A DNA stretch of 64,000 nucleotides, from assembly GCA_964537715.1 (NCBI GenBank), contig CAZIAH010000005.1, forward strand, positions 4,465-68,464, read 5' to 3'. The stretch is from an uncultured bacterium (GTDB taxonomy: Bacteria; Zhuqueibacterota; QNDG01; DSAB01). Below are positions 1 through 57,339 of this stretch, piece by piece (the stretch's first letter is position 1; each line of letters opens with the position of its first letter). The position numbers and the translations under genes are program-made. A model generated the notes under the pieces. That model searched no databases. It was not told where the DNA came from and was given only the letters and a program-made list of their open reading frames with translations.

Positions 1-1737
1 TCACGATCCGTTGAACAATACCGCTGCTATTTGTAACTGAGATCGCATTTTTACAGCCGGGAATCACATTGGAAACAATATAACGATCCCCTTTATGCTC
101 CACTGTCCCGCTCGTTGATTGGATTTCAGAAATTGTAGAGGCATCGAAACAGAATTCAGGCGTAATTCCAGGATTCTGGATGAAGAACCAATCCGTACGA
201 TCCCCCTGATCGATGCGGCATAAAGGTTGGGCTGTCGCATATTTTAGCAGCGTGCCATCCATATTTTTGTTGATTGGCCAGATAAAAATACAACTATCCG
301 GAATATCAACCGGTTTTGATGGAAACGCCAAATTTTCACCTGGCAACTGGATTTCAAACTGTACATTTTTCTGAACCGGTTTCTGCGCGCCGCGGTAATA
401 ATTCAATCCGAACAGGTAAGCCGAATTCCCAAGCGCGCGCACTGCGTATTGCAGCTCTTTTCGGGCGTCCCCATTCGTCGGAATCACCGGAAGCATCGGC
501 GCCAGTTCGTCCCCGAATTCATTGAGAAAATAGTGCAGTTTTTTGACTTCATGATATGATGGCGCCAGTTCACCTGTCTCGCGAATGGCGGCCTGAAAAT
601 CATAAGAGATGTCCGGATAGTCATTACTGTAACCGGTTTCATCCCGATTCTCCTCCAGAGTGGTGTAAATTCCCACGGGATTGATTCCGCCGGTAAATAC
701 ATAATAGCCCGGTAAGTTGCTGCCGGAACCAACGTTAACCGTGGCAATCGCCAGGCCATCGAATCGGCTGAGTACCGGTCTCCTGTGCCCGGACAGTTGA
801 TTGCCCACGCCCAGTTCGCACGTCAAATAGGGGTAGCGTGTGTAGTCGACCTGGTAACCTCCGAAACGCTCTGCTTCTCTGTTACCGATGGTCTCATCAT
901 TCATCGGCAATGAAAATGTAAAGCTCGAATTTTCTTCGATCTTGTCCGTATGCGCCGCCCATGGTTCAGCCGGATAGCTGCCCCATAGCGGAATCACCTC
1001 ATCTTTCGGCACAGATGCGGCACGCCAGCCTGTGACCGTGTATATCGGGACATCGAGTCCATATTTTAAAGCAGTTTGTTTTAACCAGCGGATATACTCC
1101 TCCCCCTGCTCGCCGCGCCAGTATTCATTCTCCAATTGGATGCCAATAACCGGACCGTCGTCTTTGTGCAAATACCCATGCAGCTGCTGAGCAATTTGAC
1201 TATACCATCGATCTGCATAAAACTGGTATACCGGATGATTCGTCCGGTTTTGCAGATTCTTTTTCTTAAAAATCCAATCGGGAATGCCGCCGTTGCGCAC
1301 TTCACCATGACACCAGGGACCAATCCGGGGCCAGGCATACAAATCATGTTTTTTGCACAATTTGATAAAGTCGCGCAGATCCTTGTTTCCCGACCAATCG
1401 AACTGTCCTTCAATTTCCTCATGGTGAATCCAGAATACGTAGCAGGCGATAATGTTAATGCCGTTGGCCTTCATCTTTAAGATTAAATCTTCCCAATGCT
1501 CTCTTGGACAACGAGAATAGTGAATTTCTCCCATCACCGGGATCACTGGTTTCCCGCTGAGCGTCAGGTATTGATTGTTTACAAGAATTTCCTGACCTTC
1601 AGGACCTGGGTGTCCCATTTTTAAATGCCCGGCCATAATTTGTTTGGGAGGTACCCGGGCGTCGATAGTGAAGGTTTTCGCGGAGATAGCACTAACAGCA
1701 ATTATTAGCATGCCTATTGTGAAGAGCATATTTTTCA
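1..1737 (-). CDS. Glycoside hydrolase family 35 beta-galactosidase, secreted; 3' end truncated by the window edge
   Basis: ATG at complement 1735-1737. Uninterrupted reverse-frame reading to position 1, with no stop in the window. N-terminal signal peptide MKNMLFTIGMLIIAVSAISA. GH35-type catalytic region PVIGIQLENEY and IGPWCHGEVRNGG. The ORF track lists no complete ORF here because the stop lies outside the window. Confidence 0.75.
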
Positions 1738-1764
1738 TGATATTTTCTCTAAAATATTTTCATT

Positions 1765-4653
1765 CTATTTCGGTCTTAAATCATTCGGACTATCGGATGT
1801 ATGAAAATTTAATTTATTCCTTTCTTTATTTGTAAAGATATCCTCAATAGTTTCAATATCAACATCAAATTTGGGTTGGAATTTTTGCGACGCTATATAT
1901 TTTTTCAAACTGTAGAACAATTGTCTTGCAACAATCCTTTCATCAGGATTTGTTTCCAAATCAGCGCTGCAAACCAGCAATTTCCCATTTAAAACATTGG
2001 CTTCGAATATCAATCCTAATCTGCGATTTAAAAACCAGGTGTCTATGGGTTGCACAATCGGACGAAATTCTGCCGGAAAATCATCGAGTATCATTACCTG
2101 TTGCTTGTGCAAAATTTCCCACCACTGCAAATTGCTGTGAAAATCAGTTGGGAAATCTGCGAACGCCGGATGTTCCGGGTTGCATAAAATGCCCAGCGTA
2201 TGCGGCGGCCGCATCTGGAACCATGATGTATTCCAGAATACCGGCCGGAAATATTGAACAACATCCTTGCCATTTTGGACTTTTCCTGCGCAAAGTAAAA
2301 GTACTTTTCCTCCCTTTTGCAGAACAGCTTTCGTTTCTTCATCAAATTCGTTGCTAATGGTTATATCTGTATTTATATCCGGCAGCTTTGCCGGATAGAC
2401 CCAGAAATCCCAGTCATTTTTATATTTCATTACTTTGACTTGCAGATTCAGCTTTGAAGCCTTTTTCACATTTAAAAGCGGCGCTTCCACAGTTCCCAAT
2501 TCAATGCCGTTTCCGATTGGAATGTCTTTGGCGCCCAGCTCGCCATTAAAGAGCAGATTGCCATGTTCATCAGTAATTTTCCATTGTGGTACAACGTGAT
2601 TAAGCGCTTCTTCACCAAAATGAGCAATTTCGATATCTGCTTTAAAGATTTCATTATTTGTATAAACAAATTTGGGTAAGCGTGCCAATGGCACGGTATA
2701 ATTGCAGAAACGTTTAAATCCTTCAGCCGTTATGTATCCTTTGTTGTCCCAGAAAACATCCAGCACGCCGACAAGCGCTGTGCCCTGCCCGGGGAAATCA
2801 TTCAGCGAAAGTAATTGTATTCCTGCTAATCCGCGCGTCCTCAAGGCTGCCTCAATCTCTGATTTATAACACAACGCCTGCAGTTTTCCGGACGCCATTA
2901 AAAAATCATTTGCTAAATCACTCATGTGATGATCGGCCAAATCTTCCTTAAAAAGCTCGAAATTGCGCGGTTCATAAACGCCCGTATATCTGTCCATTTC
3001 ATTGAAGTTTGGAAAGACACAATACTGCCCCATCTCATGAGCGACATAAGGGACGTTATATTTTGCGATTCTATCTTCATAATCGAAAAGGCTCTGTGGC
3101 CGTTCATCCCAGGGCAGTCCACGCGGCTCTGAACGCACAATATATTCGCTCTCAGGAACCAATGGCCAACTGCGCGCGATGGAGGCGCCTGTATATACTC
3201 GACGTTGATCTTTTTCTTTCCAGTGGTTGACAAAGTCGCCCAGATATTTCACTTGGTTATGACCTGCGGGTTCGTTGCCGTAAGCCATCATCACGAAAGA
3301 AGGATGATTCCCATAAGCGTCAACAATGCGTTCTGTTTCATCGTAAATATACTGATCGATGGGCTTACCGTCTCCGAGGGATGCGCCATGATTCGCCCAA
3401 CTTGCACCTTCGGGCTGCAAGTAAAATCCGGTTTTGTCCGCTGCATTGAAGGCAGCCTCCGGTGGACACCAGGAATGAAAGCGTATATGATTGAATCCAT
3501 ATTCGCGGCAGGTTTTAAAAATGCGCTCCCATGATCGGACATCTGTCGGCGGGCAGCCTGTTATTGGAAAAGCTGCGCAATCCACTGTTCCTCTTAGGAA
3601 GGTCTGTCTTCCATTTACTTCAAACCTGACGCCATTAACCTTAAACTCGCGCATGCCAAATTGAATCTCTTTTAAGGCTTTATTATTCAATTGATCAGCC
3701 AATTCTAAAGTAAGTTTGTAAAGCGCAGGATTAAATTCATCCCAGAGTTGAACTTCTTCCCCCATCGCATAATTGATTTTTATTATCGTGTCTGGCGTGT
3801 TGATGCTAATTTTCGTTGTAACAGATTTTATCTGATGTCTGGTATTCGAATTAAAAGATTTTGCAGATAATCGAACCGTACAAAGCGAGGATCGTTCATC
3901 CGGTTTGCTTATGTTCATAACCACTTTAACAGATTTTGTGTGTATATCGGGAAAAAGTTTAACATCCGCAAAATGGATCGGAGGCAAGGCTTCCAATTTT
4001 ATGCTGCCGACAATACCGTTCCAGTTTCCCTGTGTATGGTCGGTGAGGCTGTGCGAATCAGGACCGACGTTAATATCTTTGATGCGATTATCAACCCGAA
4101 TGACAATCGAATGCTTTCCCGGTGTTAAGCTTTTGCTTAGATCAAAGACGTGAGGTGTTGAGAGACTGTTTTGCAGTCCTTGTCTGATCGTATCTACCCA
4201 AACGATGGTTTCCCAGTGCGGACGTTCGAGGAACAATTTGATGGTCTTGTTTTCCCACGATTGTGGGATTGTTACCTCTTTACGATACCATGCAGATCCT
4301 ACATAATGTTTACGCGGCGTAAGCCAAAACGGAAATTTGATATTCCCGGGTTGTCGGTATTTTTTTAACCGTGGATCGAAAAACCAGGAGCTGTCGTAAA
4401 TAGTGCCTGTCCACCGGGTTGTCAATGACGGTTCATCACCTTTGTTGTTTTCCGCCATGGAACCGGGTAGTGTCATCTCATCGACTAAATCAAGACGATA
4501 CCATTCCTGCTTAATTCCAACATCTAAAGAATCAATCGCAAAATGCCATTTACCGGCAAGTGAAATGATATTTTTATGGTCCACATCACAACTCGCGAAC
4601 AAAATGATGATTGCAAAAAAGCTGACTGTTTTTAAAATGGATTTTTTAATCAT
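1765..4653 (-). CDS. GH2-like glycoside hydrolase (beta-galactosidase/beta-glucuronidase-type TIM barrel), lipoprotein
   Basis: ORF 1765..4686. Preferred ATG at 4653 gives MIKKSILKTVSFFAIIILFASC (lipobox). GH2 N-terminal sugar-binding signature (WYRKEVTIP..KLFLE..VWVD). TIM-barrel segment GFNHIRFHSWCPPE and acid/base motif AYGNEP. Confidence 0.7.
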   Translation of the reverse strand: MIKKSILKTVSFFAIIILFASCDVDHKNIISLAGKWHFAIDSLDVGIKQEWYRLDLVDEMTLPGSMAENNKGDEPSLTTRWTGTIYDSSWFFDPRLKKYRQPGNIKFPFWLTPRKHYVGSAWYRKEVTIPQSWENKTIKLFLERPHWETIVWVDTIRQGLQNSLSTPHVFDLSKSLTPGKHSIVIRVDNRIKDINVGPDSHSLTDHTQGNWNGIVGSIKLEALPPIHFADVKLFPDIHTKSVKVVMNISKPDERSSLCTVRLSAKSFNSNTRHQIKSVTTKISINTPDTIIKINYAMGEEVQLWDEFNPALYKLTLELADQLNNKALKEIQFGMREFKVNGVRFEVNGRQTFLRGTVDCAAFPITGCPPTDVRSWERIFKTCREYGFNHIRFHSWCPPEAAFNAADKTGFYLQPEGASWANHGASLGDGKPIDQYIYDETERIVDAYGNHPSFVMMAYGNEPAGHNQVKYLGDFVNHWKEKDQRRVYTGASIARSWPLVPESEYIVRSEPRGLPWDERPQSLFDYEDRIAKYNVPYVAHEMGQYCVFPNFNEMDRYTGVYEPRNFELFKEDLADHHMSDLANDFLMASGKLQALCYKSEIEAALRTRGLAGIQLLSLNDFPGQGTALVGVLDVFWDNKGYITAEGFKRFCNYTVPLARLPKFVYTNNEIFKADIEIAHFGEEALNHVVPQWKITDEHGNLLFNGELGAKDIPIGNGIELGTVEAPLLNVKKASKLNLQVKVMKYKNDWDFWVYPAKLPDINTDITISNEFDEETKAVLQKGGKVLLLCAGKVQNGKDVVQYFRPVFWNTSWFQMRPPHTLGILCNPEHPAFADFPTDFHSNLQWWEILHKQQVMILDDFPAEFRPIVQPIDTWFLNRRLGLIFEANVLNGKLLVCSADLETNPDERIVARQLFYSLKKYIASQKFQPKFDVDIETIEDIFTNKERNKLNFHTSDSPNDLRPK

Positions 4654-4792
4654 AGTTTTTGTATAGAATCTAATTCGGCCACACAACCACGATTCTTATC
4701 TCCATCCTTCTGCTTTTTCCAATGCCGCTAATACGGATACCAATAAAATTACTGCCATAGGCCATTTTATCGATTTCATTCGTTTAAACTCT

Positions 4793-6262
4793 CTATTTTA
4801 GCATCATCATCTTACTTGTTCTAACCTGATTAGCCGCTCTCAATTGGACGACATATAGTCCTGAAGGTACATTATTTCCAAAATTATCCTGCCCGTTCCA
4901 ATGATTCCTGTAAGTTCCTTCTTTCAATTGAGCATTTTTATAAAATGAAATAGTTTTTCGTCCTTGTAAATCATACAGGACCAAATCGACGAATGTTGGT
5001 TTTATTAAAGAAAAAGAAAGTGTTGTTGAAGAATTAAACGGATTAGGATACGCCTCATATAGTTCAATTTGGGTTGGAATTGCAGAACCACTTTGGGGAG
5101 ACACACTCATACTTTCAGCCATTTTATACATCTCACTGCCTGCAAGTAGAAATCCGCCATGCCCATATCCTTCAAAATTTGGCGCCTTATCATAAGATAA
5201 AGGCTGGCCATCGGAGGGTTGTTTGCCTGTGCTTTGGACATAACCCAAAAATCCATCGGGATGCAGCGCATCATTTACCATGCCGTTCCATCCTTTGATT
5301 GCAGAAGTGCTGTATTTGGGATCAGTTAGAATTCCATTGTTGACGCCCCATGCCAAACCATAGGTGAAAAAAGCGGTGCCCGATGTTTCTTTACCGCCAT
5401 AATTATTGGGATCGTGCAAACTCGAATTCCAGAAACCATCTTCCCTTTGCACCAGCACCAGCGCTTCAGCCATTTCCCGGAATACCGTGATATACTCGTC
5501 GCGATGAGGAGTGTCTTCCGGGATAATATCGAGAACGCGCGCAAGCGCAGTGAGCACCCATCCATTTCCACGCGACCAGTACTCATCTTCGCCGTTTGGC
5601 GCCTGACAGGGAGGATCAAAGTCCTTATCGCGCCACCATAAATGATCTACAGGATTATATAGACCATTATCGCCATGTGTGGTTTTAGTATAATTGTAAA
5701 TGCTATACATTTTCTCAAAATATTTGTCTTCGCCGGTGACCACGCCAAGTTTTGCGTACACTGGCATAGCCATTTGTACAGCGTCAATCCACGACCAGTA
5801 ATTATTCTTGTCGCTATCAACCTGTTTATCGATATTTTCTTTGATTGAAGATAATCGTTCTGGTTGAGGATCAATCTGGTAAAGTTCCAGATATGTTTGC
5901 CCGCAGCACTGATGATCTGCATCAGTCGTTTCCAAACTACCGTATGTTGGTTTCCACTGGTGACCTTCTGCCCATGTAACGGCATAATTGTAATAGTCTT
6001 GCTTTGAATCGATAAAATATAAAGCCATTAAACCCTCATAATATACGGCGCGCGTCCAGAGGTTGCTTGGGCGTACCTTATCGGTTACAATATCAGCAGT
6101 CGGGTCTGGCCATTTGTTCATAAAATAGGTGTTTGCCAAGGTCATTTTTTCAAGAATCGTTGTTTTGTCAGATAAATTCTGTGTATTAACTGCTGCTATC
6201 GGAATAAGAAAAATTAATACAATAACAAATTTGCCCAAGTCTAATTTTTTAATCGTTTTCAT
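4793..6262 (-). CDS. GH105/GH88 unsaturated rhamnogalacturonyl/glucuronyl hydrolase with T9SS C-terminal sorting domain
   Basis: 489 aa. Signal peptide present. YWSRGNGW motif typical of the YteR/YesR (GH105) fold. C-terminal tail YEAYPNPFNSSTTLSF...LK matches the T9SS CTD. Strong SD (AGGAGG) upstream of the ATG. Confidence 0.75.
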   Translation of the reverse strand: MKTIKKLDLGKFVIVLIFLIPIAAVNTQNLSDKTTILEKMTLANTYFMNKWPDPTADIVTDKVRPSNLWTRAVYYEGLMALYFIDSKQDYYNYAVTWAEGHQWKPTYGSLETTDADHQCCGQTYLELYQIDPQPERLSSIKENIDKQVDSDKNNYWSWIDAVQMAMPVYAKLGVVTGEDKYFEKMYSIYNYTKTTHGDNGLYNPVDHLWWRDKDFDPPCQAPNGEDEYWSRGNGWVLTALARVLDIIPEDTPHRDEYITVFREMAEALVLVQREDGFWNSSLHDPNNYGGKETSGTAFFTYGLAWGVNNGILTDPKYSTSAIKGWNGMVNDALHPDGFLGYVQSTGKQPSDGQPLSYDKAPNFEGYGHGGFLLAGSEMYKMAESMSVSPQSGSAIPTQIELYEAYPNPFNSSTTLSFSLIKPTFVDLVLYDLQGRKTISFYKNAQLKEGTYRNHWNGQDNFGNNVPSGLYVVQLRAANQVRTSKMMMLK

Positions 6263-6361
6263 CTTATGTGCCTCCTAAAATCATAAATTAATTATTATAA
6301 TAACAAGGTATTACGAGAGCGATGGAAGCGCTGATGCACCTTTTTAGACCGGATTCATAAG

Positions 6362-8512
6362 TTATTCTCCCATTTCAGCTGGTACTTTTCCTACAACAAT
6401 GCATTTGCTCTCCCAGGGTTCAAGTTTTAATTCAAATGCGACATGGCCGGGATCCGGTGATGATGCATCAATCTTGAGGATTTTCCCTTTCATGGCATCC
6501 CATCCCTGAGCTTGTCCTTTTCCTGTAAGTGTTACATTTCTCTCTTGTTTTACTCTACCTTCATTAAAGAAAAAAAACAAATCAGCATCTGCAAGTTTGC
6601 GATGAACATATTTAATTTCTGCACAAGCGCTGTCCAGTTTAACATCCGGTTCCGGTAACGCTTTCAATACTTCCAGGGTCAATTCTCCCGACGGTTCTTT
6701 TATCGCCCAACTCAGATCGCCAGGAGCTGTTGCATCACGGAATGTTTTGTCCACGACAAGCGATGGTTCATCACCAAGAAAAACGACTTTTCCACCTGAT
6801 GCAGCAAAAGACTTTAGACGATTAAGCGCCTGTTTCGAAATTGCAAAAGCCGATGGAATGAGTACCGTTCTGTATGTTTGGCCGCTTAGATTTTTAAATC
6901 TACCATTTTCAAGTTGCATGGCTGACGAAAGCGCTGTTTCATCAACAAAATCAAAATCATGCTGCGTTTCGAGTAGGGTTTGCATGAGTTGCAGAACATA
7001 GTCGTTGCTTTCTTTATGTCCGAGCCACAAGCTGGTTGTCGGATGATACACAGCAATATCCGCGGCCGGCCGGCCTTGTGAAAGCAAATAGCAGCAGCGG
7101 TGTATATAATTGGCAACACCTGAAAATTCTTCACTTGCAGTCCAGCCATTCAGTCCAAGCTTTCCACTCGATGATGCAGGCACAAACATTACCTCTACCA
7201 TATTGATGCCGCGAACGAGTTGATAATCCAGCACCCATTTGGCCTGGGCAACAGACGGCTTAATATGGTAAGCGGCAAAACTCTCAGTGAATGAGCGCGG
7301 CTTACCGTACACATGAGCTGACGACGATGCGTATTTGGGATAATTCGTCGCATTTGTGTTATCCGGCCAGATCTGATTCCATATTGCATCTACACCGGGC
7401 ATCTGGACGTGCCGCATACATTCAAAGAAATCCCCTTCGTGCGTTACCAATTGCATCATATCATCTTCTTTGTTCAAATGAACGAGATATTCCAGGTTAT
7501 TCTGAGCGCACCAATCGGCCTGTTGCTGGAAAAAATATTCGCCGAACATATCGGACCAGACATCCCAATAATCGGCTTTTATGCGCTTTTGCTCATCGGT
7601 TGGTTTACTTATAAAAAAAGAAGCGACATAAGGTTGGACATCATAACCTTTGCGCTTTTTGAAAATCTCGAAGATTTTCGGCGTCCAGGGAATACCACGG
7701 ATGCTGTAATCCGGCTCATCACCGCGAAAGCCCAGTACTGTTTTCCCAAATTCCGACCCGACACGTTTCTTATGTTCTTCATGAGTAAATTCGAGGAATT
7801 TTTTTGTGGCAGCGGGATCGAGATAGTCCATCAGCGAATTGCTGGTATCTTTGCCATGTGTCGGATTGTTGACAGCGCGTGTCGGCGAACTGCGGAAATC
7901 ATGTTTGATGAGTAGAATGCTCCATTCTCCTTCCGGCGCTGTCCACTGTAATTGGCCAGATTGGATTTCAAGAATTTGGTTGGTCGTATCAGCCTGATTA
8001 ATAGCAATGGCGCCTATGATATCAGTAGGCAGTTTTTGAGAAATTGTTACTTTGCCGGCTACTTCCAATGTATCAGCCACTACAAGAGCTTTCATTCTCA
8101 GCTCAGGCGCATCGATTGTAAACTTGCCCCCTGCAAATCCGCTGGGATATTTTCCCTCATCTACGATCCAGACCCGCATATCCCTTTCGCGCGCCATTTC
8201 CACAGTGCGTTTGACCAGAGCAAACCATTCGGGTGAAAGATATGGAGCGCCCATGTCGTACCCTGATTCCAGGGTAACAATGTGAACGCCCCGGGCTTTA
8301 AAAGCATCCAAGTCCCGGGCAATCACTTCATCGGTGATTTCACCATCCCATCCCCAATAGAATGTCAGGCTGTATTCAACCGGCGGCGATTGGAAGTTGG
8401 CGGCGATTTCGTCCATGCTTGTGTCGTTGAGCGCTTGCCAGGAACGGTTGGATGAGCATGCAGATAAACTCAAAAGTATAAATAGGGACAGGACAATTTT
8501 TAAAGATTTCAT
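6362..8512 (-). CDS. Secreted lipoprotein, putative glycoside hydrolase of undetermined family (TIM-barrel-like N-region, GH42-domain-B-like alpha/beta C-region)
   Basis: ORF 6362..8557. ATG at 8512 gives MKSLKIVLSLFILLSLSACSS (lipobox). Segments FYWGWDGEI..RDLDAFKARGVHIVTL and GFRGDEPDY suggest a (beta/alpha)8 barrel. C-terminal VVFLGDEPSLV region resembles a flavodoxin-like trimerisation/GATase-like domain. No family assignment possible by eye. Confidence 0.45.
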   Translation of the reverse strand: MKSLKIVLSLFILLSLSACSSNRSWQALNDTSMDEIAANFQSPPVEYSLTFYWGWDGEITDEVIARDLDAFKARGVHIVTLESGYDMGAPYLSPEWFALVKRTVEMARERDMRVWIVDEGKYPSGFAGGKFTIDAPELRMKALVVADTLEVAGKVTISQKLPTDIIGAIAINQADTTNQILEIQSGQLQWTAPEGEWSILLIKHDFRSSPTRAVNNPTHGKDTSNSLMDYLDPAATKKFLEFTHEEHKKRVGSEFGKTVLGFRGDEPDYSIRGIPWTPKIFEIFKKRKGYDVQPYVASFFISKPTDEQKRIKADYWDVWSDMFGEYFFQQQADWCAQNNLEYLVHLNKEDDMMQLVTHEGDFFECMRHVQMPGVDAIWNQIWPDNTNATNYPKYASSSAHVYGKPRSFTESFAAYHIKPSVAQAKWVLDYQLVRGINMVEVMFVPASSSGKLGLNGWTASEEFSGVANYIHRCCYLLSQGRPAADIAVYHPTTSLWLGHKESNDYVLQLMQTLLETQHDFDFVDETALSSAMQLENGRFKNLSGQTYRTVLIPSAFAISKQALNRLKSFAASGGKVVFLGDEPSLVVDKTFRDATAPGDLSWAIKEPSGELTLEVLKALPEPDVKLDSACAEIKYVHRKLADADLFFFFNEGRVKQERNVTLTGKGQAQGWDAMKGKILKIDASSPDPGHVAFELKLEPWESKCIVVGKVPAEMGE

Positions 8513-8570
8513 ATTTTTATCCATTTTATTTGAGACTACGTATGAGTGCAATTTCAAAGTATACTTATAT

Positions 8571-8617
8571 CGAAGTGGTTTTGAGATTTTGTCATAATAA
8601 ATCTCAAAACCACTTCG
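8571..8617 (-). terminator. Large perfect hairpin (18-bp stem) between the GH78 gene and the next gene; terminator or attenuator
   Basis: cgaagtggttttgagatt (8571-8588), 11-nt loop, aatctcaaaaccacttcg (8600-8617). 23 nt after the GH78 stop. The downstream tract is A/U-rich but not a clean U-run. Confidence 0.4.
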
Positions 8618-8640
8618 GAAGGAGTAAATGATGAAACGAT

Positions 8641-11361: not shown

Positions 11362-11453
11362 TGTTTCCTCTTTTATCATTTTTTCTGCAATATTTTACTC
11401 ATTGTGTAAATTTAAATGCTGAACCCGGTATTTTGGGCCGGAGAATATTTGTA

Positions 11454-12992: not shown

Positions 12993-13017
12993 GCTGGGTT
13001 CCTTTCCTTGTTGAATG

Positions 13018-14139: not shown

Positions 14140-14225
14140 GTTTTGGCCTTAATTAAATAACAAACGGACAACAGAGAACGAAGAGTTTTTTCTTCCGTTT
14201 CCCATCTTCCATGTTCCGTTCTCCT

Positions 14226-15482: not shown

Positions 15483-15552
15483 TGATTACTCCTTCAGAGA
15501 TAAAAAGGATTATCTGACATTGTTTGATATTCTGTCCGGCTGATGCCTCAAA

Positions 15553-19088: not shown

Positions 19089-19108
19089 TCTTAATTTTTC
19101 CTTCCGCC

Positions 19109-41491: not shown

Positions 41492-41512
41492 TGCGATCGC
41501 GATAATATCGCA
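41492..41512 (-). promoter_or_regulatory. Composite palindrome TGCGAT-N9-ATCGCA with nested GCGATCGC and GCGATA-N-TATCGC, upstream of the rhaB operon
   Basis: Plus strand tgcgatcgcgataatatcgca. About 88 nt upstream of the rhaB ATG. A TATAAT -10 (complement 41416-41421) lies about 12 nt from the ATG. Confidence 0.35.
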
Positions 41513-41538
41513 AATTTTTGACGCCATTCTTCTAAAAG

Positions 41539-44601: not shown

Positions 44602-44649
44602 AACTCTCTGCATTCTCAAATTTTCAAGCTACTGTTGCTTTTGTATCTG

Positions 44650-50537: not shown

Positions 50538-50574
50538 TAGCTACTCCATGAAACACCAAAGTGTTTCAGCAGAA

Positions 50575-52191
50575 TTATTGTGGTTCAACAACTTTTAAAT
50601 ATTTCTTTAAATCGAGTCCTTCGGTTGATTTTATCACTTCTGAAATAATTGCCGCATTCACCTGGGCTCCCGCCGCATTGGTATGTGTGGTTTCATCTCC
50701 GTCAAAATAGAGGGCAGTTACCCGTTCCTTACCAATATGATCATAATGATCGGCTATTAACTTATTCAAGGGGATAAAATATGCTCCTTCCTGCTCGGCC
50801 GCTTGTTCAGCCCATTGGGCATAGCTGTCCACTGAACGATTGATTTTGCCATCAGTCCAGTGGTTGCGTGGAATGAGCGAACACACAATAGGTGTGGCGC
50901 CTTTGGCTTTGATTTCTTTTATATATTGGCGTATGTACCAGCCGTAGCTATGCACAATTTCGTGTTCGCCGGTGAGCATATTATCGATTTCTTCGGTCTC
51001 TTCGCCGTTACCTTTAATAGTACCGCGCGCGCGGCGATCATCGTTAATCGTACTGGAATCATTATGTCCGAATTGCATGATAACAAAATCACCCTTTTTT
51101 AATTTGGGATAGACTTTGTCCCAAAATCCCAGGCTTCGAAAGGTACGGCTACTCGTGCCACCCCAGGCTTTGTTTTCGACATTCAGACGGGTCCGATCGA
51201 AAAAGTCCGCAATAGGTGCTCCCCAACCCCATTGGCCATTGGAGCCATCTCCTTTCGTACCGTTCCTGACGGTAGAGTTACCAATTGTATAGAGTGTAGG
51301 CTTTGTAGGTTCTGATACTGGCTGTACATCCGGCATCCATGGGGCAGTCAACCAATTCTTTACCTGCTCTACCATCACATTTGGGCCATATGCATTGACA
51401 CTTTGCCCAAGGTCAGACAGCATTTGAGTTAGTGGACTCTTTACCGCTTTCAGCCCGGAAACAAGGATGGCTGCGTTAAGAAAGGCGCCTTCCGGCTTAT
51501 TGTGGGTATGGTCTTTAGGAAAAAATTCCCTGACGCGAATGGGCCCAAGTAGTTCATACTGGTCCGCGATCATATTACGCAGATCAATGAATGTGACCTG
51601 AGTACCTACGGCGACTTCTTTGGCTAGGGTACAAAAAATGTTTTGTCGTTCTATCTTTCCATCAGGCCAGACATTGCGGGCTGTCATGCTCAGTACAATG
51701 GGAATAGCGCCCTTTTCTTTTGTTTCATTAATCATTTTACGCATGTACCAGCCAAATGTATGGACAATCTCGTGTTTTCCGGTTTTTAAATTATCTATCT
51801 CAAGAGTTTCATCTCCCAGGCTTGGAATAGAACCTCGTGCCCTGCTGCTGTCATTAATCTGACCGGCGTCGTTATGACCAAATTGAATCAGAACATAGTC
51901 ACCCGGTCTGAGTTCACTATGGATATCTTCCCACAAACCTTCAGTTATAAACGTACGGCTACTACGGCCGGCTTTCGCCATATTTACAACCGTCAATTTT
52001 TCTGAATCAAAATATTTTTGCAGGTGACTGCCCCAACCATTCTCCGCTTCGTTTTTTGCGGTAGAATTTCCGGCAATGAATAACTTAGTTCCATTGTTAT
52101 CGGATTGTATTGATGTTTTTTGAGATGTTGCTGATACATCCGCCAGAGTACTGAACAGAAAACCCATTAAAAAGCAAATAAACCAATGCAT
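50575..52191 (-). CDS. Tandem two-domain SGNH hydrolase, CE12 rhamnogalacturonan acetylesterase-like
   Basis: 538 aa. Two homologous halves. Each has the Ser block (LFIAGNSTAKN..GWGS / LYTIGNSTVRN..GWGWGA), a GHND block (IQFGHNDAG / MQFGHNDSS) and a D..H block (DHTHN / DETTHTN). Confidence 0.75.
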   Translation of the reverse strand: MHWFICFLMGFLFSTLADVSATSQKTSIQSDNNGTKLFIAGNSTAKNEAENGWGSHLQKYFDSEKLTVVNMAKAGRSSRTFITEGLWEDIHSELRPGDYVLIQFGHNDAGQINDSSRARGSIPSLGDETLEIDNLKTGKHEIVHTFGWYMRKMINETKEKGAIPIVLSMTARNVWPDGKIERQNIFCTLAKEVAVGTQVTFIDLRNMIADQYELLGPIRVREFFPKDHTHNKPEGAFLNAAILVSGLKAVKSPLTQMLSDLGQSVNAYGPNVMVEQVKNWLTAPWMPDVQPVSEPTKPTLYTIGNSTVRNGTKGDGSNGQWGWGAPIADFFDRTRLNVENKAWGGTSSRTFRSLGFWDKVYPKLKKGDFVIMQFGHNDSSTINDDRRARGTIKGNGEETEEIDNMLTGEHEIVHSYGWYIRQYIKEIKAKGATPIVCSLIPRNHWTDGKINRSVDSYAQWAEQAAEQEGAYFIPLNKLIADHYDHIGKERVTALYFDGDETTHTNAAGAQVNAAIISEVIKSTEGLDLKKYLKVVEPQ

Positions 52192-52330
52192 TTGTATACT
52201 TATTATTAATTTTATATTTTTTATTTCTATTATTTATTCTCAATTAACGGAGAAGGATTTATGACCACTAATAGTATCGAGGACACAGACTCCCTTCGTC
52301 CCGCATGCGGGATTAGGACAGGTTTGATCA

Positions 52331-52384
52331 CAATAAAAACAGAATTGCCTGTTGTTAATTGGTTTTATACCAATCAACAACAGG
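52331..52384 (-). terminator. Rho-independent terminator downstream of the beta-helix T9SS protein gene
   Basis: 16-bp stem cctgttgttaattggt / accaatcaacaacagg (one mismatch), 5-nt loop. It is followed on the minus strand by caauucUGUUUUUAUU. Confidence 0.5.
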
Positions 52385-52414
52385 CGTTAAGTAAATACTA
52401 CCGAGAGTATTCCC

Positions 52415-54121
52415 TTACTTGAGCAGCATTAATTTCTTGCTCATTACAGTATTACCTGATTTTAGTCTATATAAATATAGACCGCTAGGTAAATGTGTTG
52501 CGTTGAATTCCACAGTATAGCTGCCAGCCAAACGATATTCATCAACGAGTGTTGTAACAGCCTGTCCCGTAAGATTATAAACAACCAGCTTCACTTTGCC
52601 ATTTACAGGAACCGTAAAGCGAATATTGGTAGTCGGGTTAAATGGGTTAGGATAGTTTTGGGCGAGGTCAAAAACTCTGGCTACCTTAGCACCTTTTTTA
52701 ACTGACACGACATCTTCAGGCTTTATTTTCGCTGATTCTTCATCACCAGGAACATAAACATACGTTGCATTTACCATTGAATCCCGCAATGCTGCAATAT
52801 ATGCATCTCTGTTAGCCAGATAAGTGGCTTTGTCATTCGGGTACCAGTTTAAGTCACCAAGTGGCAGTCCATCCGTACCGGCTGTCTGCAGATAGGTATT
52901 TGAATAGCTTAAATCCATATCCGGCGGCCAGTTTAAAGTTGGCAGACCAGTAGTTGGATCCCAGGTTACAGGTGGTGTAATACGCCAATCCGGGTAATGA
53001 GTCTCGTCTGTCCAATTAGCCAAATCCCATCCACACATACTATCGATTTTACTCGGATCATTAGTAAACCCGATATCAAATTGCCAGTAGTTTTTACCTA
53101 TTGTAAAGTTATCATCTTCAGTAATAGTCGTGTCAACACCTGTATCCCATAAAAAACATTGAATTACATGAGCAGAATCATCCGCCCTTAGAGGGTTAAT
53201 TGTATTGTCCCAATATTCTGGAAAAGCAGGATCCAGATAAAATAAGTTGCTTCCTTCATATAGTGAAAGAGAATCAAGTTGATTTTCTACATCATAAAAA
53301 TGATCCCATGTTGTAAAAGGTGCTTCATAATGGTTAGTCCTTAAATCACGTCCTCTCCAGCTCCAGTTATAATAAATATTGTTTGCCTGTAGCCCTTCTA
53401 ACCAATGAAGTTCATGACCGTTTACCTGTTGATTACAAACGGTATTATGTATCTCGGTCATTTTTGAAGTAAAAAAGTTACCGCCATTACCCAGCATTCT
53501 AGCTGCATTAAAAACGGTATTATTTTCGAACGTTAGCTGCGTACAGGCAGCATCCAAACGGAAAGGCATACCTCCAAATGGTGAACCGCCCCTTCGATCA
53601 CCATTTATAAAAACACAGTTGGTAATCGTGATTTCATCAGTTGGACCTGTACTTCTAGTACAGTGATCTCTATGGTCGGAGAATGCGCAATTATCCCACA
53701 CAATTTTGTAACCACCGTAATTGCGAACAAAAGATGAGATATTTACATCATTGGGATGAAGTCCAGTTAGTAGGATATTTTTTAGCGTTGCACTTCCTCC
53801 TTCTCTAAGGTTAATCATATCTCTTGCCGAGCCGTCAGATGCAGGTGTTTGGAAAAATACAGGCGGTGTGGCGTCATGCAATATCCAGCCATTATCAGGA
53901 CCTTCTATTACCAAGTCAAAATCACATTCTAAAGTCCCGTCAAAAGCATAGTATGTACCGCTTTCTACTTTATAAACTGAGTGCGCCTGTGTACCATCTG
54001 CCAGTGTGTCTGCATTAATTTGCGCATTGACAAACTGCTGTGGATCAAGTGTTAATTCCTGGGCTGCGACAGTTCCAAGCCCTAAAAAAAATACCAGCAT
54101 TATTGTCATTAATTTGTTCAT
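52415..54121 (-). CDS. Secreted beta-helix-like protein of unknown function with T9SS CTD
   Basis: ORF 52415..54133. ATG 54121 is preceded by ATGGAGGATGTG (SD GGAGGA) and gives MNKLMTIMLVFFLGLGTVAA. Asn/Gly/Thr-rich coil repeats (ITITNCVFINGD, TFENNTVFNA). C-terminal LAQNYPNPFNPTTNIRFTV tail. Confidence 0.4.
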   Translation of the reverse strand: MNKLMTIMLVFFLGLGTVAAQELTLDPQQFVNAQINADTLADGTQAHSVYKVESGTYYAFDGTLECDFDLVIEGPDNGWILHDATPPVFFQTPASDGSARDMINLREGGSATLKNILLTGLHPNDVNISSFVRNYGGYKIVWDNCAFSDHRDHCTRSTGPTDEITITNCVFINGDRRGGSPFGGMPFRLDAACTQLTFENNTVFNAARMLGNGGNFFTSKMTEIHNTVCNQQVNGHELHWLEGLQANNIYYNWSWRGRDLRTNHYEAPFTTWDHFYDVENQLDSLSLYEGSNLFYLDPAFPEYWDNTINPLRADDSAHVIQCFLWDTGVDTTITEDDNFTIGKNYWQFDIGFTNDPSKIDSMCGWDLANWTDETHYPDWRITPPVTWDPTTGLPTLNWPPDMDLSYSNTYLQTAGTDGLPLGDLNWYPNDKATYLANRDAYIAALRDSMVNATYVYVPGDEESAKIKPEDVVSVKKGAKVARVFDLAQNYPNPFNPTTNIRFTVPVNGKVKLVVYNLTGQAVTTLVDEYRLAGSYTVEFNATHLPSGLYLYRLKSGNTVMSKKLMLLK

Positions 54122-54138
54122 CACATCCTCCATTTTAT

Positions 54139-54305
54139 GTGTTAGATTAGCTGTTTACGAAATTGGTTCCTCTAATCTATTACAATTAATTCTATATCAC
54201 ATATCACCTCCTTCATGCTTTTAGTTTTGAGCGTGTTAGATTAGCCGATTACGAAATTGGTTCCTCTAATCTGTTACAATTAATTCTATGTCACATATCA
54301 CCTCC
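54139..54305 (-). repeat. Two 73-bp direct repeats (about 90% identical) separated by 21 bp, in the 5' leader of the beta-helix gene, each with an internal 8-bp-stem hairpin
   Basis: Copy 1 54139-54211, copy 2 54233-54305. Each contains TAGATTAG...CTAATCTA (stem) around a 21-nt loop. In gene orientation each begins GGAGGTGATATGTGA (SD-ATG-TGA). The same GGAGG..ATG architecture reappears at the true start 54121. Confidence 0.8.
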
Positions 54306-54342
54306 TGTATACTTAAGGTTTGAATGGAAAATATATATATTG

Positions 54343-57339
54343 TTAAAACGTATAACGAATCCCTAAGTCTGCAGTTCGTCCATAATATTCCACCGCAGAC
54401 AATTTTTCCAAAACACTTACAAATTGGCGATCCGGTCTGTTGGTAATGTTGTTTACATTCAAATATAATTGAAGTCCTTCAATCCAGGGAAGTTTTTGGT
54501 AAGCTGTAAAATCCCATCTGTAATAAGGAGCTGTATATGAATCAAGTTCTTGATAAGTTGGATCTGCCTTTCTTAAAACATTGTCCTGGTATAAAAATGA
54601 TAACCGCGCTGAAAAACCGCCAATATCATAACCCAATGTTAAGTTCAGGATATCATCCGGTTGATTGATCAACCTGCCTGTCCGGGTTGTATCTACGGTT
54701 GTATATGTATAAAATGGGAAAACACCTGTTTTCTTTGTGTAGTAATATGGATAGCGCGTTTCAGACTTAATGTGCGTATAATTAATGTTGAAAACCAAAC
54801 CCCTAAGGTAGGAGGGAAGGTACCAAAAGTTGGTCTGCCAGTCTAACTCAATACCCCTTACGTAAGAGGTTTCCTCCAAATTAGTCCAGGTATGAATTTC
54901 TGGAGCTTCACTCCCCGATTGGGGTAATTGAAACCTGTTATGAATCTTTGAAGCATCTGTAGTTTTATACTTAATAGAAACAATTAAATTATCTATTTCT
55001 TTATAAAAGAATCCTGCTGTGAATAACCCGATATGATTTTCATATACCGAAGCATAAATATCATAATTTTGAGTTAATGCAGGCTTTATATATGGATTGC
55101 CTAAGCGTACTACTACCGGAATGGCATACGTATCAGCAAACAAATAAGGAGAAACAGCGCGGTAATCCGGGTATATTATACTTTTAGTACTTGCTAACCG
55201 TATATCAAACCAGTCTGTCGGTTTAATACGCATTTGCATCTGCGGAAACCAGTTTTCTGCTTTTGTAGAATCCCAATGTAATTCTGCATAGTCATAATAA
55301 TACTCACCTGGCGTTGTCAATCGACCAAATACAAATGTAGAATCTGCAGTATAATCGAAATTAAATTTTTCGTATCTTACTCCAGGCAATAATGTAATAT
55401 ATTTACTAATATTCAATTCCGACATAAGATAAAATGCATAGTAATCTCGAGTATAATGATAATCATATTGAGTTGATTGTTGCGGCCATGGAAGATAATA
55501 GCCAGATTCCTTGGCTAATTCTTCCAAATGATGCATTTTCCAAACTGAAACTTTGTTGTAGAAGATATCACTACTAACACCCTCTTTACCTGAAAGAAAA
55601 TCGCCGATATCATAATTCGGATCCGCAAATAAAGAAGCTTTTATACCATTATCATCTGCCTTCATACCAAGGTCTGGCCATAAAGTTTCCCTCAATAGAG
55701 TATTAAAATCTAGTGAAAGCCCTCCCCTATCTGTATCAAGTCCCCATTGCGTCTCATCATTTTTTCTTGTATTACGTACATATTTACCACCCAACTTAAG
55801 GTTACCTGCCAAATAACTTGAAAAAGTAAAAGGCACTTTAAAATTGAGCACAGCCGATTGCGCAGTTTCATCAACATCCCGCTTCAGAGTAGATAAGTTA
55901 TTTAGGATTTTATCTTTACTTATAATTTGAGCATGATTTAGTAATACACTCGGTGATACCTTATTCTCTTTACCGCTTATAACTGAATCTGGATCCCATC
56001 CTTTTGTCCCGCCTGATCTGGTTCTAAAATCTAATGTTAAATCGCCAGGAGTGCGTTGCTTTGTAATTGAATTTGAAAGTGAAAAATCCATGCTAATGTT
56101 AAAAAATTCAAATTCACCTTGAAGTGCATTGCTGATTACGGTATTTGTAAATTCCCTGTCATATCCATAACCTCTCCAATCATAATCAGAAGTTAAATAA
56201 TTTCTCTGTTCTGTTTGAGTCTGATGTATACTACTTATAAAATTATTCATTAACAATGATCCGTTTGAAAATTGGTAATCTAAAACCAGGCTGCCGCCGG
56301 CTCTTTTTCTATCTGTAACTAGATCATTTATGGTAACATTAGACAGGTAGGTCGGAAGAAGTCCATTCACTCTTTTATCTTCTTCATTTGTCTTATAAAC
56401 GGCTGTTAATGAATCGGAGCTTCTATTGTATTTATCCAGGAAACCCGAAAGCTGTACGCCTAACTTGTTATCAAAAAAACGGTTGCTAAGCAATCCATTA
56501 GCCCTGTAATTGCCATAAGTATCTGCTAATGATCCGTATCCATCCTGTATAGAAAACTTACTATGAAATCCTTTGGCAGCTTTGCTTATTTTAAGATTAA
56601 CTATTCCTCCAACAGCATCGGCATCCATATCAGCGGTCAGCACTTTGATCACTTCAATGCCGGAAAGTATATTGGGCGAGATCATATTCAGGTCTGTACT
56701 CCGGTCATCACGGTCAGTAGATTCCATCCGGACATTATTAACCATCATCACGTTATATTTTGGTGAAAGCCCACGAATAGTAACCTTTTGTCCTTCTCCA
56801 CCATCCCTGACCAACGATACTCCTGGTAATCGACTTACTGATTCCGCAGCATTTGCATCAGGCACGTCCTGTATACGATCCGCAGCAACTATATTTGTTA
56901 TTGTCCTAGCTGATATTTGCTGGTTAATTGCAGCCATCTGTCCGTCAGCCTGAGCAGTTATTTCGACCGCTTCACCTTTTATAGCTGCATACTCCAGTTC
57001 AATAGTTTGAGTTTTAACCTCGCCTTCTTTGATAACTATCGGCAACTTTACTTCTTTGTACCCGATGTATGTAACAACAATGGTATAGGTACCGGGCCAA
57101 ATATTGGGGATATAATACTCACCGTGCATATCCGTTGCAGATCCTATGGATGTCCCTTCCAACAAAACATTGGCGCCAGGTAAAGGTTCGCTTGTTACTT
57201 TGTCCAGAACAACACCGGTAATTCGACAGGATCCGGCTGCCTGAACATGAGTCGCCCCTAAAAAGAATACTGTAAAAAGGACAGTGCAGATCAATCCTTT
57301 CAAGTACAAAGAGCGTTTAGAATGGTAAATAGCTTTCAT
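54343..57339 (-). CDS. TonB-dependent outer-membrane receptor with N-terminal carboxypeptidase-regulatory-like domain (no SusD partner)
   Basis: 998 aa. Signal peptide. CarbopepD_reg-like region ITGVVLDKVTSEPLPGANVLLEGTSIGSATDMHGEYYIPNIWPGTYTIVVTYIGYK. Plug region. Beta-barrel ending in a terminal F (GIRYTF). SD GTGAGGGAAAGG before the ATG. Confidence 0.85.
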   Translation of the reverse strand: MKAIYHSKRSLYLKGLICTVLFTVFFLGATHVQAAGSCRITGVVLDKVTSEPLPGANVLLEGTSIGSATDMHGEYYIPNIWPGTYTIVVTYIGYKEVKLPIVIKEGEVKTQTIELEYAAIKGEAVEITAQADGQMAAINQQISARTITNIVAADRIQDVPDANAAESVSRLPGVSLVRDGGEGQKVTIRGLSPKYNVMMVNNVRMESTDRDDRSTDLNMISPNILSGIEVIKVLTADMDADAVGGIVNLKISKAAKGFHSKFSIQDGYGSLADTYGNYRANGLLSNRFFDNKLGVQLSGFLDKYNRSSDSLTAVYKTNEEDKRVNGLLPTYLSNVTINDLVTDRKRAGGSLVLDYQFSNGSLLMNNFISSIHQTQTEQRNYLTSDYDWRGYGYDREFTNTVISNALQGEFEFFNISMDFSLSNSITKQRTPGDLTLDFRTRSGGTKGWDPDSVISGKENKVSPSVLLNHAQIISKDKILNNLSTLKRDVDETAQSAVLNFKVPFTFSSYLAGNLKLGGKYVRNTRKNDETQWGLDTDRGGLSLDFNTLLRETLWPDLGMKADDNGIKASLFADPNYDIGDFLSGKEGVSSDIFYNKVSVWKMHHLEELAKESGYYLPWPQQSTQYDYHYTRDYYAFYLMSELNISKYITLLPGVRYEKFNFDYTADSTFVFGRLTTPGEYYYDYAELHWDSTKAENWFPQMQMRIKPTDWFDIRLASTKSIIYPDYRAVSPYLFADTYAIPVVVRLGNPYIKPALTQNYDIYASVYENHIGLFTAGFFYKEIDNLIVSIKYKTTDASKIHNRFQLPQSGSEAPEIHTWTNLEETSYVRGIELDWQTNFWYLPSYLRGLVFNINYTHIKSETRYPYYYTKKTGVFPFYTYTTVDTTRTGRLINQPDDILNLTLGYDIGGFSARLSFLYQDNVLRKADPTYQELDSYTAPYYRWDFTAYQKLPWIEGLQLYLNVNNITNRPDRQFVSVLEKLSAVEYYGRTADLGIRYTF

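Follow-up and report, generated by a model that had tools for sequence, protein, structure and literature searches.

The known systems closest to the locus analysed here are of two kinds. The Bacteroides pathway for rhamnogalacturonan I (RG-I) is encoded in the polysaccharide utilization locus (PUL) BT4145-BT4183 (Luis et al. 2018; summary in PMC8002723). Loci with a TonB-dependent receptor (TBDR) without SusD and with a LacI regulator represent the known pattern of carbohydrate utilization loci containing TBDRs (CUT loci; cited in PMC13543919). For the class Ignavibacteria, carbohydrate-active enzymes (CAZymes) with Por C-terminal domains (CTDs) are reported from Melioribacter roseus (PMC3534657), and susCD tandems are known from Ignavibacteriae (PMC5753385; Mros0759-0761 in PMC3534657), so that the absence of SusD from a locus of this group is not a lineage trait. 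Here, a 64,000-nucleotide stretch of DNA from an uncultured bacterium (contig CAZIAH010000005.1, positions 4,465 to 68,464, in the following "the window") was analysed. It harbors an array of genes for RG-I utilization, in which a TBDR gene (54343..57339) is directly followed by a gene encoding a beta-helix protein with a CTD of the T9SS, a secretion system of type IX (52415..54133). On balance, the locus is probably a CUT-like RG-I system of an Ignavibacteria bacterium, in which this beta-helix protein serves as a glycan-capturing partner of the receptor. The RG-I array itself is ordinary; the dedicated T9SS beta-helix partner is apparently an undescribed element. No description of a system of TBDR and T9SS partner was found in a literature search of incomplete coverage, the sole precedent being the uninterpreted listing of Rmar_1070/1071, and neither T9SS nor a beta-helix is brought up in a review of glycoside transporters from 2026. 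The system had been characterized in a preliminary description, which covered positions 1..57339, as PUL-like but mechanistically distinct. This view stands in so far as the locus is PUL-like without SusC/SusD; it is new only in part, since both CAZymes with Por CTDs and SusD-less TBDRs with LacI were known already. The feature carrying most information, the conserved beta-helix gene 3' of the receptor gene, had escaped that description.

The receptor gene and its immediate surroundings comprise the following features, with family assignments from Pfam and NCBIfam scans of the 35 open reading frames (ORFs) of the window:

57442..58506, minus strand: LacI-family regulator, directly 5' of the receptor gene (Pfam LacI and Peripla_BP).
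54343..57339, minus strand: TonB-dependent receptor of 998 amino acids (CarboxypepD_reg N-domain, Plug and barrel in Pfam; TIGR01782).
52415..54133, minus strand: partner protein of 572 amino acids (signal peptide, beta-helix at approximately 50-300, mixed helical region at 300-475, T9SS type-A CTD at approximately 492-572; TIGR04183, 46.9 bits).
52347..52385, minus strand: hairpin with a 17-bp stem directly 3' of the partner gene, a possible terminator or attenuator closing the receptor-partner unit.

The receptor matched TIGR01782 (TonB-Xanth-Caul) over the complete model (362.3 bits, cut-off 310; residues 123-998, model positions 2-868 of 868). TIGR04056 (SusC/RagA) was matched by residues 40-232 only, which correspond to the N-domain and the plug (63.5 bits, cut-off 368). 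The receptor is therefore of the Xanthomonas/Caulobacter class and not a SusC. Its carboxypeptidase-regulatory-like N-domain, already noted in the preliminary description, was confirmed as CarboxypepD_reg by Pfam. None of the 35 ORFs gave a match to the Pfam families SusD, SusD-like_2 or SusD-like_3, in line with the earlier claim that no SusD is encoded. The gene following the receptor was considered as a susD candidate, as the sizes of the two proteins (998 and 572 amino acids) are SusC/SusD-like, but this was rejected by Pfam, NCBIfam and the structure model: the protein is modelled as a beta-helix and its signal peptide ends in ...GTVAAQ without a cysteine. Adjacent susC-like and susD-like genes, by which PULs are recognized in PULDB, are thus not found, and a beta-helix gene follows the receptor gene instead. 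A TBDR, a GPH symporter, more than 15 CAZymes and a LacI regulator are united in one locus, which is the composition of a CUT locus. Two TonB receptors had been placed within 1..57339, of which only the one described above was recovered. A second TBDR is encoded outside of this interval on the plus strand (63170-64000), truncated by the end of the window. It is transcribed divergently from the array and shares only the N-domain (CarboxypepD_reg) with the first receptor. Database homologues of its N-terminus were mostly partial proteins at contig ends.

Outside the CTD, the partner protein had no Pfam or NCBIfam match. More than 1,800 homologues were found with the full-length query, CTD included (E <= 1e-5), all of them unnamed or named after the CTD only; a library-wide single-sequence phmmer search without the CTD yielded 299 clusters at 50% identity (E <= 1e-3). 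The closest homologues are 74-85% identical. In the AlphaFold2 (AF2) model, calculated from an alignment of 52 sequences (pLDDT 86, pTM 0.77), a right-handed parallel beta-helix is followed by a mixed helical region and by the beta-sandwich of the CTD, the latter being kept in 52/52 aligned homologues. DUF4957 (PF16318) gave weak, sub-threshold matches in eight of the 52 homologues (best E 2.9e-4) and none with the partner of the window at E <= 1. Neither a Pfam or NCBIfam model nor a solved structure exists for the family. In two of the loci compared (L011, 13204-16236, and L018, 11984-15001), the ORF downstream of the receptor is approximately 1010 amino acids long and contains two tandem beta-helix modules before one CTD.

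For the conservation of the pair, 80 loci were fetched by means of the receptor, and the first same-strand downstream ORF was scored with a hidden Markov model (HMM) of the beta-helix only (CTD excluded). Four loci were left out (L019, L035, L057 and L074), which end at or within approximately 400 nt after the receptor gene or contain a partial receptor. In 73 of the 76 evaluable loci, the next downstream gene of the receptor homologue encodes a beta-helix homologue (E <= 1e-22), and 69 of these 73 proteins also carry the CTD. The pair persists at receptor identities as low as 35% and is found in at least six classes, its carriers being Ignavibacteria, Melioribacter, KSB1, Calditrichota, Rhodothermales, Balneolales, Saprospiraceae, Cytophagia, Draconibacterium and Paludibacter. 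The identities of receptor and partner to the respective window proteins are correlated (Pearson r = 0.96, n = 61). A distant receptor/beta-helix pair was also found in a metagenome-assembled genome (MAG) of Melioribacter roseus (L077).

The content of the neighbourhood tracks the subfamily of the pair. One of the closer relatives (L085) keeps the gene order of the window with receptor, partner, CE12, GH2 and PL11. Downstream of the close pair of Gracilimonas mengyeensis, a PL11 with CTD, an esterase in which DUF6250 is fused to GDSL, and a PcRGLX-like protein are encoded; a second, distant pair is found in a mannan-type set consisting of ROK regulator, TBDR, partner, SSF transporter, GH130 and epimerase. 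Both pairs (L071 and L081) are carried by the cultured strain DSM 21985, the partner of the distant pair having 878 amino acids. In Portibacter lacus (L015, 4689-14712), a classical SusC (1043 amino acids) and SusD (600 amino acids) divergently adjoin the pair of receptor and beta-helix protein with CTD, which is followed by a GH115-like protein and a GH92. As both systems coexist there, the pair is a separate module and not a lineage-specific substitute of SusCD.

Residue conservation in the partner was compared among 41 close and 32 distant homologues. Invariant throughout the family are an asparagine ladder, Y54, Y62, H229-N230 and a C-terminal motif (W402-P403...Y410...P424-x-G-D-L-N-W-x-P432). 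In the pectin-associated clade, R180, R192, E203, R212, H229 and H240/E241 are conserved, the first five of them invariantly. R192, R212 and Q38 are conserved in this clade only, and R192 and R212 are replaced by serine or glycine elsewhere. No acidic pair and no lysine or arginine is invariant throughout the family. Judged from these patterns, the partner may be a scaffold that combines a conserved element, possibly facing the receptor, with a glycan-dependent substrate cleft. Because R192 and R212 are clade-limited and an invariant acid pair or base is missing family-wide, glycan capture, which we consider probable by a modest measure, is favoured over conserved catalysis, which appears rather unlikely.

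Catalysis is nevertheless the alternative that survives best. The partner would then represent a new family of polysaccharide lyases, secreted or at the surface (or of beta-helix hydrolases), which would supply the receptor with oligosaccharides instead of acting as a binding lid, and the co-inheritance of partner and receptor would follow from the required match of product and transporter specificity. Such a role, somewhat doubtful in our estimation, is suggested by the nearest folds: in a Foldseek search against the PDB, the best match of the partner was the PL6 alginate lyase 7dmk (E 1e-5), with pectin and pectate lyases, enzymes of the GH28 type and tailspikes ranking next. The family is, moreover, unusually conserved (57% mean column identity among the 52 sequences), and the invariant residues of the pectin clade include arginines, arginine being a known catalytic base in pectate lyases. 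However, the TM-score to the PL6 enzyme, normalized to the query, is only 0.40 at 13% identity, and membership in PL1, PL3, PL6 or PL9 is indicated by the fold match only. In a profile search, relatives in the PDB were found for the CTD only, and in a profile comparison with the PL9 of the window only the CTD aligned. The candidate catalytic arginines are kept in the pectin clade alone. In addition, a related pair is located in the mannan-type locus of Gracilimonas, whereas beta-elimination requires a uronic acid in the substrate, which mannan does not contain. Three lyases are already encoded in the locus of the window.

Six proteins of the window carry a T9SS CTD, as detected by an HMM built from the window's own CTDs, by Pfam and by TIGR04183 (cut-off 23 bits). 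Besides the partner, these are encoded at 41539-44619, 26759-28456, 24243-26636, 15553-17580 and 4793-6262; the six reached 31-52 bits with TIGR04183 and E-values of 1e-38 to 1e-43 with the window HMM, while nothing else rose above noise. All six combine a CTD at the extreme C-terminus with an N-terminal signal peptide read from the sequence, as expected of type-A cargo, the protein at 15553-17580 having an atypical N-terminus with three hydrophobic helices. Type-A CTDs mediate surface anchoring through the T9SS sortase pathway, so that the partner is probably located at the cell surface. The preliminary description had counted at least eight CAZymes with a T9SS CTD. Only three of the six proteins are recognizable CAZymes (PL11, PL9 and GH105), the others being the beta-helix partner and two proteins without assigned function. 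It had also proposed that CTDs are used instead of lipoprotein attachment. Type-A CTDs are indeed present, but lipoprotein-like signals with a cysteine after the hydrophobic region were found in four further proteins (GH28 at 14226-15482, GH106, GH2 at 1765-4686 and the DUF6250 protein), and surface targeting is accordingly mixed. Genes for the T9SS machinery were not found within the window. The 797-amino-acid protein and the DUF362-like protein, both with CTD, were not counted as CAZymes; searches of PDB sequences were empty for both. For the DUF362-like protein, a poor AF2 model was obtained (pLDDT 60.7). Its three N-terminal hydrophobic helices are conserved, and their combination with a CTD is unusual for proteins exported by the T9SS. 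Its family shows 55-85% identity across KSB1, Bacteroidales and Ignavibacteria with many invariant cysteines, histidines and tryptophans, and its neighbourhoods in other genomes are inconsistent. Within the 797-amino-acid protein, a tandem duplication of 723 bp (24539-25261 and 25271-25993; 99% identical, seven mismatches) gives rise to two near-identical domains of approximately 244 amino acids each, and is either a very recent event or an assembly artefact.

The six-frame ORF listing revealed 34 consecutive genes on the minus strand (2..62815) without interruption; the first plus-strand gene starts at 63170. In the direction of transcription, the run starts with the ribokinase and the GlcD-like FAD oxidase, followed by the largest gap of the run (527 bp), the rhamnose isomerase RhaI, LacI, the TBDR and its 572-amino-acid partner, and then continues in the order given here, in which the palindrome and the second TBDR are included as additional features:

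60349..62815, minus strand: GlcD-like FAD oxidase and ribokinase, separated by the 527-bp gap from the RG-I genes and probably outside the RG-I system.
59975..59996, no strand: perfect 22-bp palindrome AAAACCTTTTCGAAAAGGTTTT, 3' of TTGACA-17-TATTTT (60030..60002), putative operator for the rhamnose/RG-I unit.
58607..59821, minus strand: L-rhamnose isomerase of the RhaI type, below the equivalog cut-off (TIGR02635, 320 bits, cut-off 531; RhaA in Pfam).
50575..52191, minus strand: double GDSL esterase, CE12-like, resembling the pectin/RG acetylesterase PaeY (Pfam/NCBIfam).
47562..50537, minus strand: GH2 with C-terminal F5/8 type C domain (Pfam/NCBIfam).
44650..47565, minus strand: GH115 (PF15979, 425 bits).
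41539..44619, minus strand: PL11 rhamnogalacturonan lyase with T9SS CTD (RGL11_C, 670 bits; Por_Secre_tail).
39974..41404, minus strand: rhamnulokinase of the FGGY family (TIGR02627, 523 bits, cut-off 528).
39243..39977, minus strand: class II aldolase (PF00596), from its context a putative rhamnulose-1-phosphate aldolase.
36402..39209, minus strand: LutA, LutB and LutC for lactate utilization (CCG, LUD_dom, Fer4 and LutB_C domains), presumed end of the lactaldehyde branch.
34959..36359, minus strand: protein of 466 amino acids with approximately 11 transmembrane segments and no family match, candidate rhamnose or oligosaccharide transporter.
33472..34767, minus strand: GH105 (GH88 model of Pfam), unsaturated rhamnogalacturonyl/glucuronyl hydrolase type.
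30530..33292, minus strand: PcRGLX-like three-domain protein, exo-rhamnogalacturonan lyase-like (PF21346, PF21345 and PF19501).
28453..30597, minus strand: DUF4861 and DUF6250 proteins (Pfam), accessory and recurrent in pectin loci.
26759..28456, minus strand: PL9 pectate lyase-like beta-helix protein with T9SS CTD (Pel9A-like, 300 bits; PelN, 360 bits, below cut-off).
24243..26636, minus strand: protein of 797 amino acids with T9SS CTD (CTD models), no assigned function, containing the internal 723-bp duplication.
21311..24214, minus strand: GH2, BT4156-like exo-beta-1,4-galactosidase, below cut-off (NF049891, 866 bits, cut-off 1700).
19109..21292, minus strand: GH112 phosphorylase, cytoplasmic (TIGR02336, 797 bits, cut-off 560).
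17616..19088, minus strand: GPH-family cation symporter for oligosaccharide import across the inner membrane (TIGR00792, 370 bits, cut-off 231).
15553..17580, minus strand: DUF362-like protein of 675 amino acids with three N-terminal hydrophobic helices and T9SS CTD (CTD models).
14226..15482, minus strand: GH28, BT4153/BT4155-like, with lipoprotein-like signal (Pfam/NCBIfam).
13018..14139, minus strand: protein of 373 amino acids with C-terminal PKD domain (domain scan), no assigned function.
11454..12992, minus strand: GH28 rhamnogalacturonidase, BT4146 equivalog (NF049898, 733 bits, cut-off 500).
8641..11379, minus strand: GH78 alpha-L-rhamnosidase (Pfam/NCBIfam).
6362..8557, minus strand: GH106 alpha-L-rhamnosidase, distantly BT4145-like (Pfam/NCBIfam).
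4793..6262, minus strand: GH105 with T9SS CTD (Pfam/NCBIfam).
1765..4686, minus strand: GH2 exo-beta-1,4-galactosidase, BT4151 equivalog (NF049890, 1575.5 bits, cut-off 1500).
2..1759, minus strand: GH35 beta-galactosidase, cut by the window start (Pfam).
63170..64000, plus strand: second TBDR, N-terminal 277 amino acids (CarboxypepD_reg and Plug in Pfam), cut by the window end.

The co-directional run described before was thus recovered in full, as was its pectin/RG-I content. The gene number had been given as 31 for 1..57339, where 30 genes of the run are located (29 complete and one cut at base 2), and the run continues beyond this interval. Overlapping stop and start codons, said to be frequent, were found at 6 of the 33 junctions of the longest ORFs, and several gaps exceed 100 bp. 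The GC skew of the plus strand is negative throughout the window, as is expected with all coding sequences of the array on the opposite strand.

The set for RG-I comprises PL11, PL9, a PcRGLX-like protein, two GH28, two GH105, GH78, GH106, three GH2, GH35, GH115 and CE12. A backbone lyase, an RG-specific GH28, GH105, alpha-L-rhamnosidase, exo-beta-1,4-galactosidases and an RG acetylesterase, the activities needed for RG-I degradation, are hence all represented. Two enzymes pass the NCBIfam equivalog cut-offs for enzymes of the B. thetaiotaomicron RG-I PUL, namely the BT4146-type rhamnogalacturonidase and the BT4151-type exo-beta-1,4-galactosidase, while the BT4156-, BT4153- and BT4145-like enzymes score below theirs. 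From the two equivalogs together with PL11, PL9, the PcRGLX-like protein, GH105, GH78/GH106 and the CE12-like esterase, RG-I is deduced as the probable target of the locus, the substrates of the individual enzymes being predicted from their families. Phosphorolysis and rhamnose catabolism, which the preliminary description had found to be contiguous with degradation and import, are part of the same run, in which the GH112/GPH pair and the rhamnose genes are embedded. The family GH112 includes D-galactosyl-beta-1,4-L-rhamnose phosphorylase, which would suit the disaccharide of the RG-I branch point; this specificity of the window enzyme is suggested solely by the context of RG-I and rhamnose genes. 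The PfkB protein at the upstream end was considered as a 2-keto-3-deoxygluconate kinase and rejected, as it matched the ribokinase model (317 bits, cut-off 300). The 466-amino-acid membrane protein (34959-36359) had no Pfam, NCBIfam or PDB match and may be an unclassified rhamnose transporter. Its homologue is placed between RhaI and LacI in relatives belonging to the Ignavibacteria. In close relatives (L002, 7980-9745), the receptor gene is preceded by a gene for a protein of 106 amino acids, L-rhamnose mutarotase-like by eye, which is followed by a gene for a protein of 469 amino acids, by eye a SASA-type esterase; neither is encoded in the window, in which LacI is the direct neighbour of the receptor.

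An alternative view of the array, improbable in our judgement, regards it as several independent operons (rhamnose catabolism, lactate utilization, galactan/RG-I enzymes) brought onto one strand by leading-strand bias. The run is indeed divided by gaps of 100-527 bp and by two strong hairpins (52385..52347 and 24232..24198), the ribokinase and the GlcD-like oxidase at its upstream end are unrelated to pectin, and the same genes are differently arranged in relatives. From RhaI (59821) to base 2, however, the confidently assigned genes all fit RG-I breakdown or rhamnose use, the only unplaced genes being GH115 and the CTD and PKD proteins without assigned function, and subsets of the genes are found together again in distant genomes. 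An operon structure of the array is presumed.

Signals of expression were less general than proposed before. Strong Shine-Dalgarno sites had been attributed to the genes; a GGAG/GAGG core at -20..-4 was found for 10 of 33 genes compared to 5.6% of internal in-frame ATGs, which is an enrichment but not a general feature. A canonical sigma-70 promoter had been reported as well, and one perfect consensus (TTGACA-16-TATAAT, 62873..62846, minus strand) does exist, the sole 12-of-12 match in the three scanned regions (42001-49999 being outside the scan), but it is located 30 nt 5' of the ribokinase start and thus outside 1..57339. Consensus scans for sigma-70-like promoters and terminator-like sites gave no excess over shuffled sequence, and an Rfam scan of the window gave no matches. 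The two long perfect intergenic hairpins (24198-24232, 15-bp stem, after the gene of the 797-amino-acid CTD protein, and 52347-52385, 17-bp stem, after the partner gene) are without a strong T tail. The palindrome at 59975-59996 is a candidate operator, possibly that of the LacI regulator; as it is single-copy in the window, it defines no locus-wide regulon. Its 14-mer core is repeated 5' of RhaI/transporter operons in four Ignavibacteria loci (L001, L002, L003 and L038).

In a search with one genome per GTDB species, the best relatives of the receptor were found in Ignavibacteria/Ignavibacteriales MAGs (69-79% identity), followed by Calditrichota with up to 66% and by KSB1, Rhodothermales, Saprospiraceae, Cytophagia and Bacteroidales with 50-60%. 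The best matches in Ignavibacteria loci reached 81% for RhaI, 79% for the 466-amino-acid membrane protein and 76% each for LacI and PL9. The NCBI taxonomy places the class Ignavibacteria in the Ignavibacteriota of the Fibrobacteres-Chlorobi-Bacteroidetes (FCB) group. As the protein relatives are foremost in Ignavibacteria, the source appears to belong to the Ignavibacteria but to lack a representative at the species level. An origin from an FCB-group organism outside the Bacteroidia, as assumed in the preliminary description, is supported by receptor, partner, RhaI, LacI and PL9, which are all closest to Ignavibacteria/Ignavibacteriales MAGs (69-85%).

In the CUT-like system with a capturing partner, pectin would be attacked extracellularly by the T9SS-exported PL11, PL9, one GH105 and the two CTD proteins without assigned function. 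The fragments would be imported by the TIGR01782-class receptor with its dedicated downstream, probably co-transcribed beta-helix partner, which, if located at the surface and associated with the receptor, would capture RG-I chains or oligosaccharides for it. In the periplasm, side chains might be removed and the backbone shortened by CE12, GH2/GH35, GH28, GH78/GH106, GH105 and the PcRGLX-like protein, before the GPH symporter hands over a disaccharide to the cytoplasmic GH112 phosphorylase. Rhamnose would be metabolized via isomerase, rhamnulokinase and aldolase, with LutABC taking the lactate branch, and the LacI-family regulator would govern at least part of the array.

Several points weigh against this reading. 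Three related loci (L047, L055 and L062) are without the partner, and adjacency as well as co-divergence are equally compatible with simple co-regulation. The nearest folds are lyases and arginine, histidine and glutamate are conserved in the pectin clade, which would suit an enzymatic role of the partner. Proteins exported by the T9SS may also be set free instead of being anchored. The consensus scans, with no excess of promoters or terminators, do not delimit transcription units. Moreover, neither genes for galacturonate catabolism nor a lactaldehyde dehydrogenase gene were found in the window, so that the pathway is not self-contained. That the receptor acts alone as do the CUT-locus TBDRs of Xanthomonas and Caulobacter, the CTD protein being an unrelated, co-transcribed surface protein (adhesin or structural), would agree with receptors of the TIGR01782 class functioning in the absence of SusD-like partners (Blanvillain 2007, cited in PMC13543919) but is highly improbable, as the persistence of the pair in 73 out of 76 loci, with receptor identities as low as 35% and in at least six classes, the correlation of r = 0.96 and the locus-tracking subfamilies make a functional link hard to avoid.

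The array shows that a near-complete counterpart of the RG-I pathway of gut Bacteroides, joined to rhamnose catabolism, is present in Ignavibacteria. The discovery of PULs in environmental FCB bacteria depends on susC/susD tandems, and a second conserved signature of transporter plus partner would reveal glycan loci in Ignavibacteria, KSB1, Calditrichota, Rhodothermales, Balneolales and Bacteroidia. More tentatively, and as a possibility only, the pair might represent an unrecognized, widespread two-component module for glycan import in the FCB group and KSB1, parallel to SusC/SusD, with a T9SS-delivered subunit for capture (or capture and cleavage) and with subfamilies for different polysaccharides, coexisting with SusC/SusD in some Bacteroidia. 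If so, the subfamilies would be directed to RG-I in the window, to a mannan-type glycan in Gracilimonas and possibly to xylan in Rhodothermus, and PUL prediction by susCD tandems alone would systematically overlook a class of loci. It would also be a concrete, testable case in which T9SS cargo serves an uptake system of the outer membrane as a dedicated component.

Among the described systems, the B. thetaiotaomicron RG-I PUL follows the same substrate logic, sharing with the window the BT4146 and BT4151 equivalogs, enzymes like BT4156, BT4153 and BT4145, one or more surface lyases, GH105, rhamnosidases and an acetylesterase. In contrast to this PUL, the window encodes neither SusC/SusD nor a lipoprotein surface glycan-binding protein (SGBP) such as BT4167, and a TIGR01782 receptor with a T9SS beta-helix partner is found instead; its surface enzymes carry T9SS CTDs, all genes are located on one strand, and the same run additionally contains the GH112 phosphorylase, the GPH symporter and the genes for rhamnose catabolism. 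The regulator is of the LacI type, whereas Bacteroides PULs use a hybrid two-component sensor.

The CUT loci of Xanthomonas and Caulobacter and the SusD-less operons of marine Gammaproteobacteria (cited in PMC13543919) have in common with the window the TonB-Xanth-Caul receptor subfamily and its combination with CAZymes, a transporter of the inner membrane and a LacI-type regulator. The window receptor differs by the CarboxypepD_reg N-domain typical of TBDRs of the FCB group and by its conserved, dedicated downstream partner. Furthermore, enzymes of the window are predicted to be T9SS-exported, while Proteobacteria are without T9SS.

Melioribacter roseus belongs to the same class and likewise has Por-CTD CAZymes and cell-surface-associated activity; a SusCDE system for starch was described for this organism, and neither a receptor/beta-helix pair nor an RG-I locus (PMC3534657). 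In the xylan locus of Rhodothermus marinus, the TBDR Rmar_1070 is followed by the co-transcribed, hypothetical Por-CTD protein Rmar_1071, which was predicted to be cell-attached and left uninterpreted (PMC6987092). This locus resembles the window, by gene listing and not by sequence, in LacI, T9SS-CTD enzymes and the succession of TBDR and CTD protein, and differs from it in that it also holds a SusC/SusD pair (PMC6987092).

SusD proteins and SGBPs, finally, are comparable to the beta-helix partner in its place right behind the transporter gene, the surface exposure predicted for it, the co-evolution with the receptor and the subfamilies tracking the type of glycan locus. The folds are different, with a right-handed beta-helix in the partner compared to the alpha-helical, TPR-like SusD, and the partner is predicted to be exported and anchored by a T9SS CTD, whereas an N-terminal lipid serves this purpose in SusD and SGBPs.

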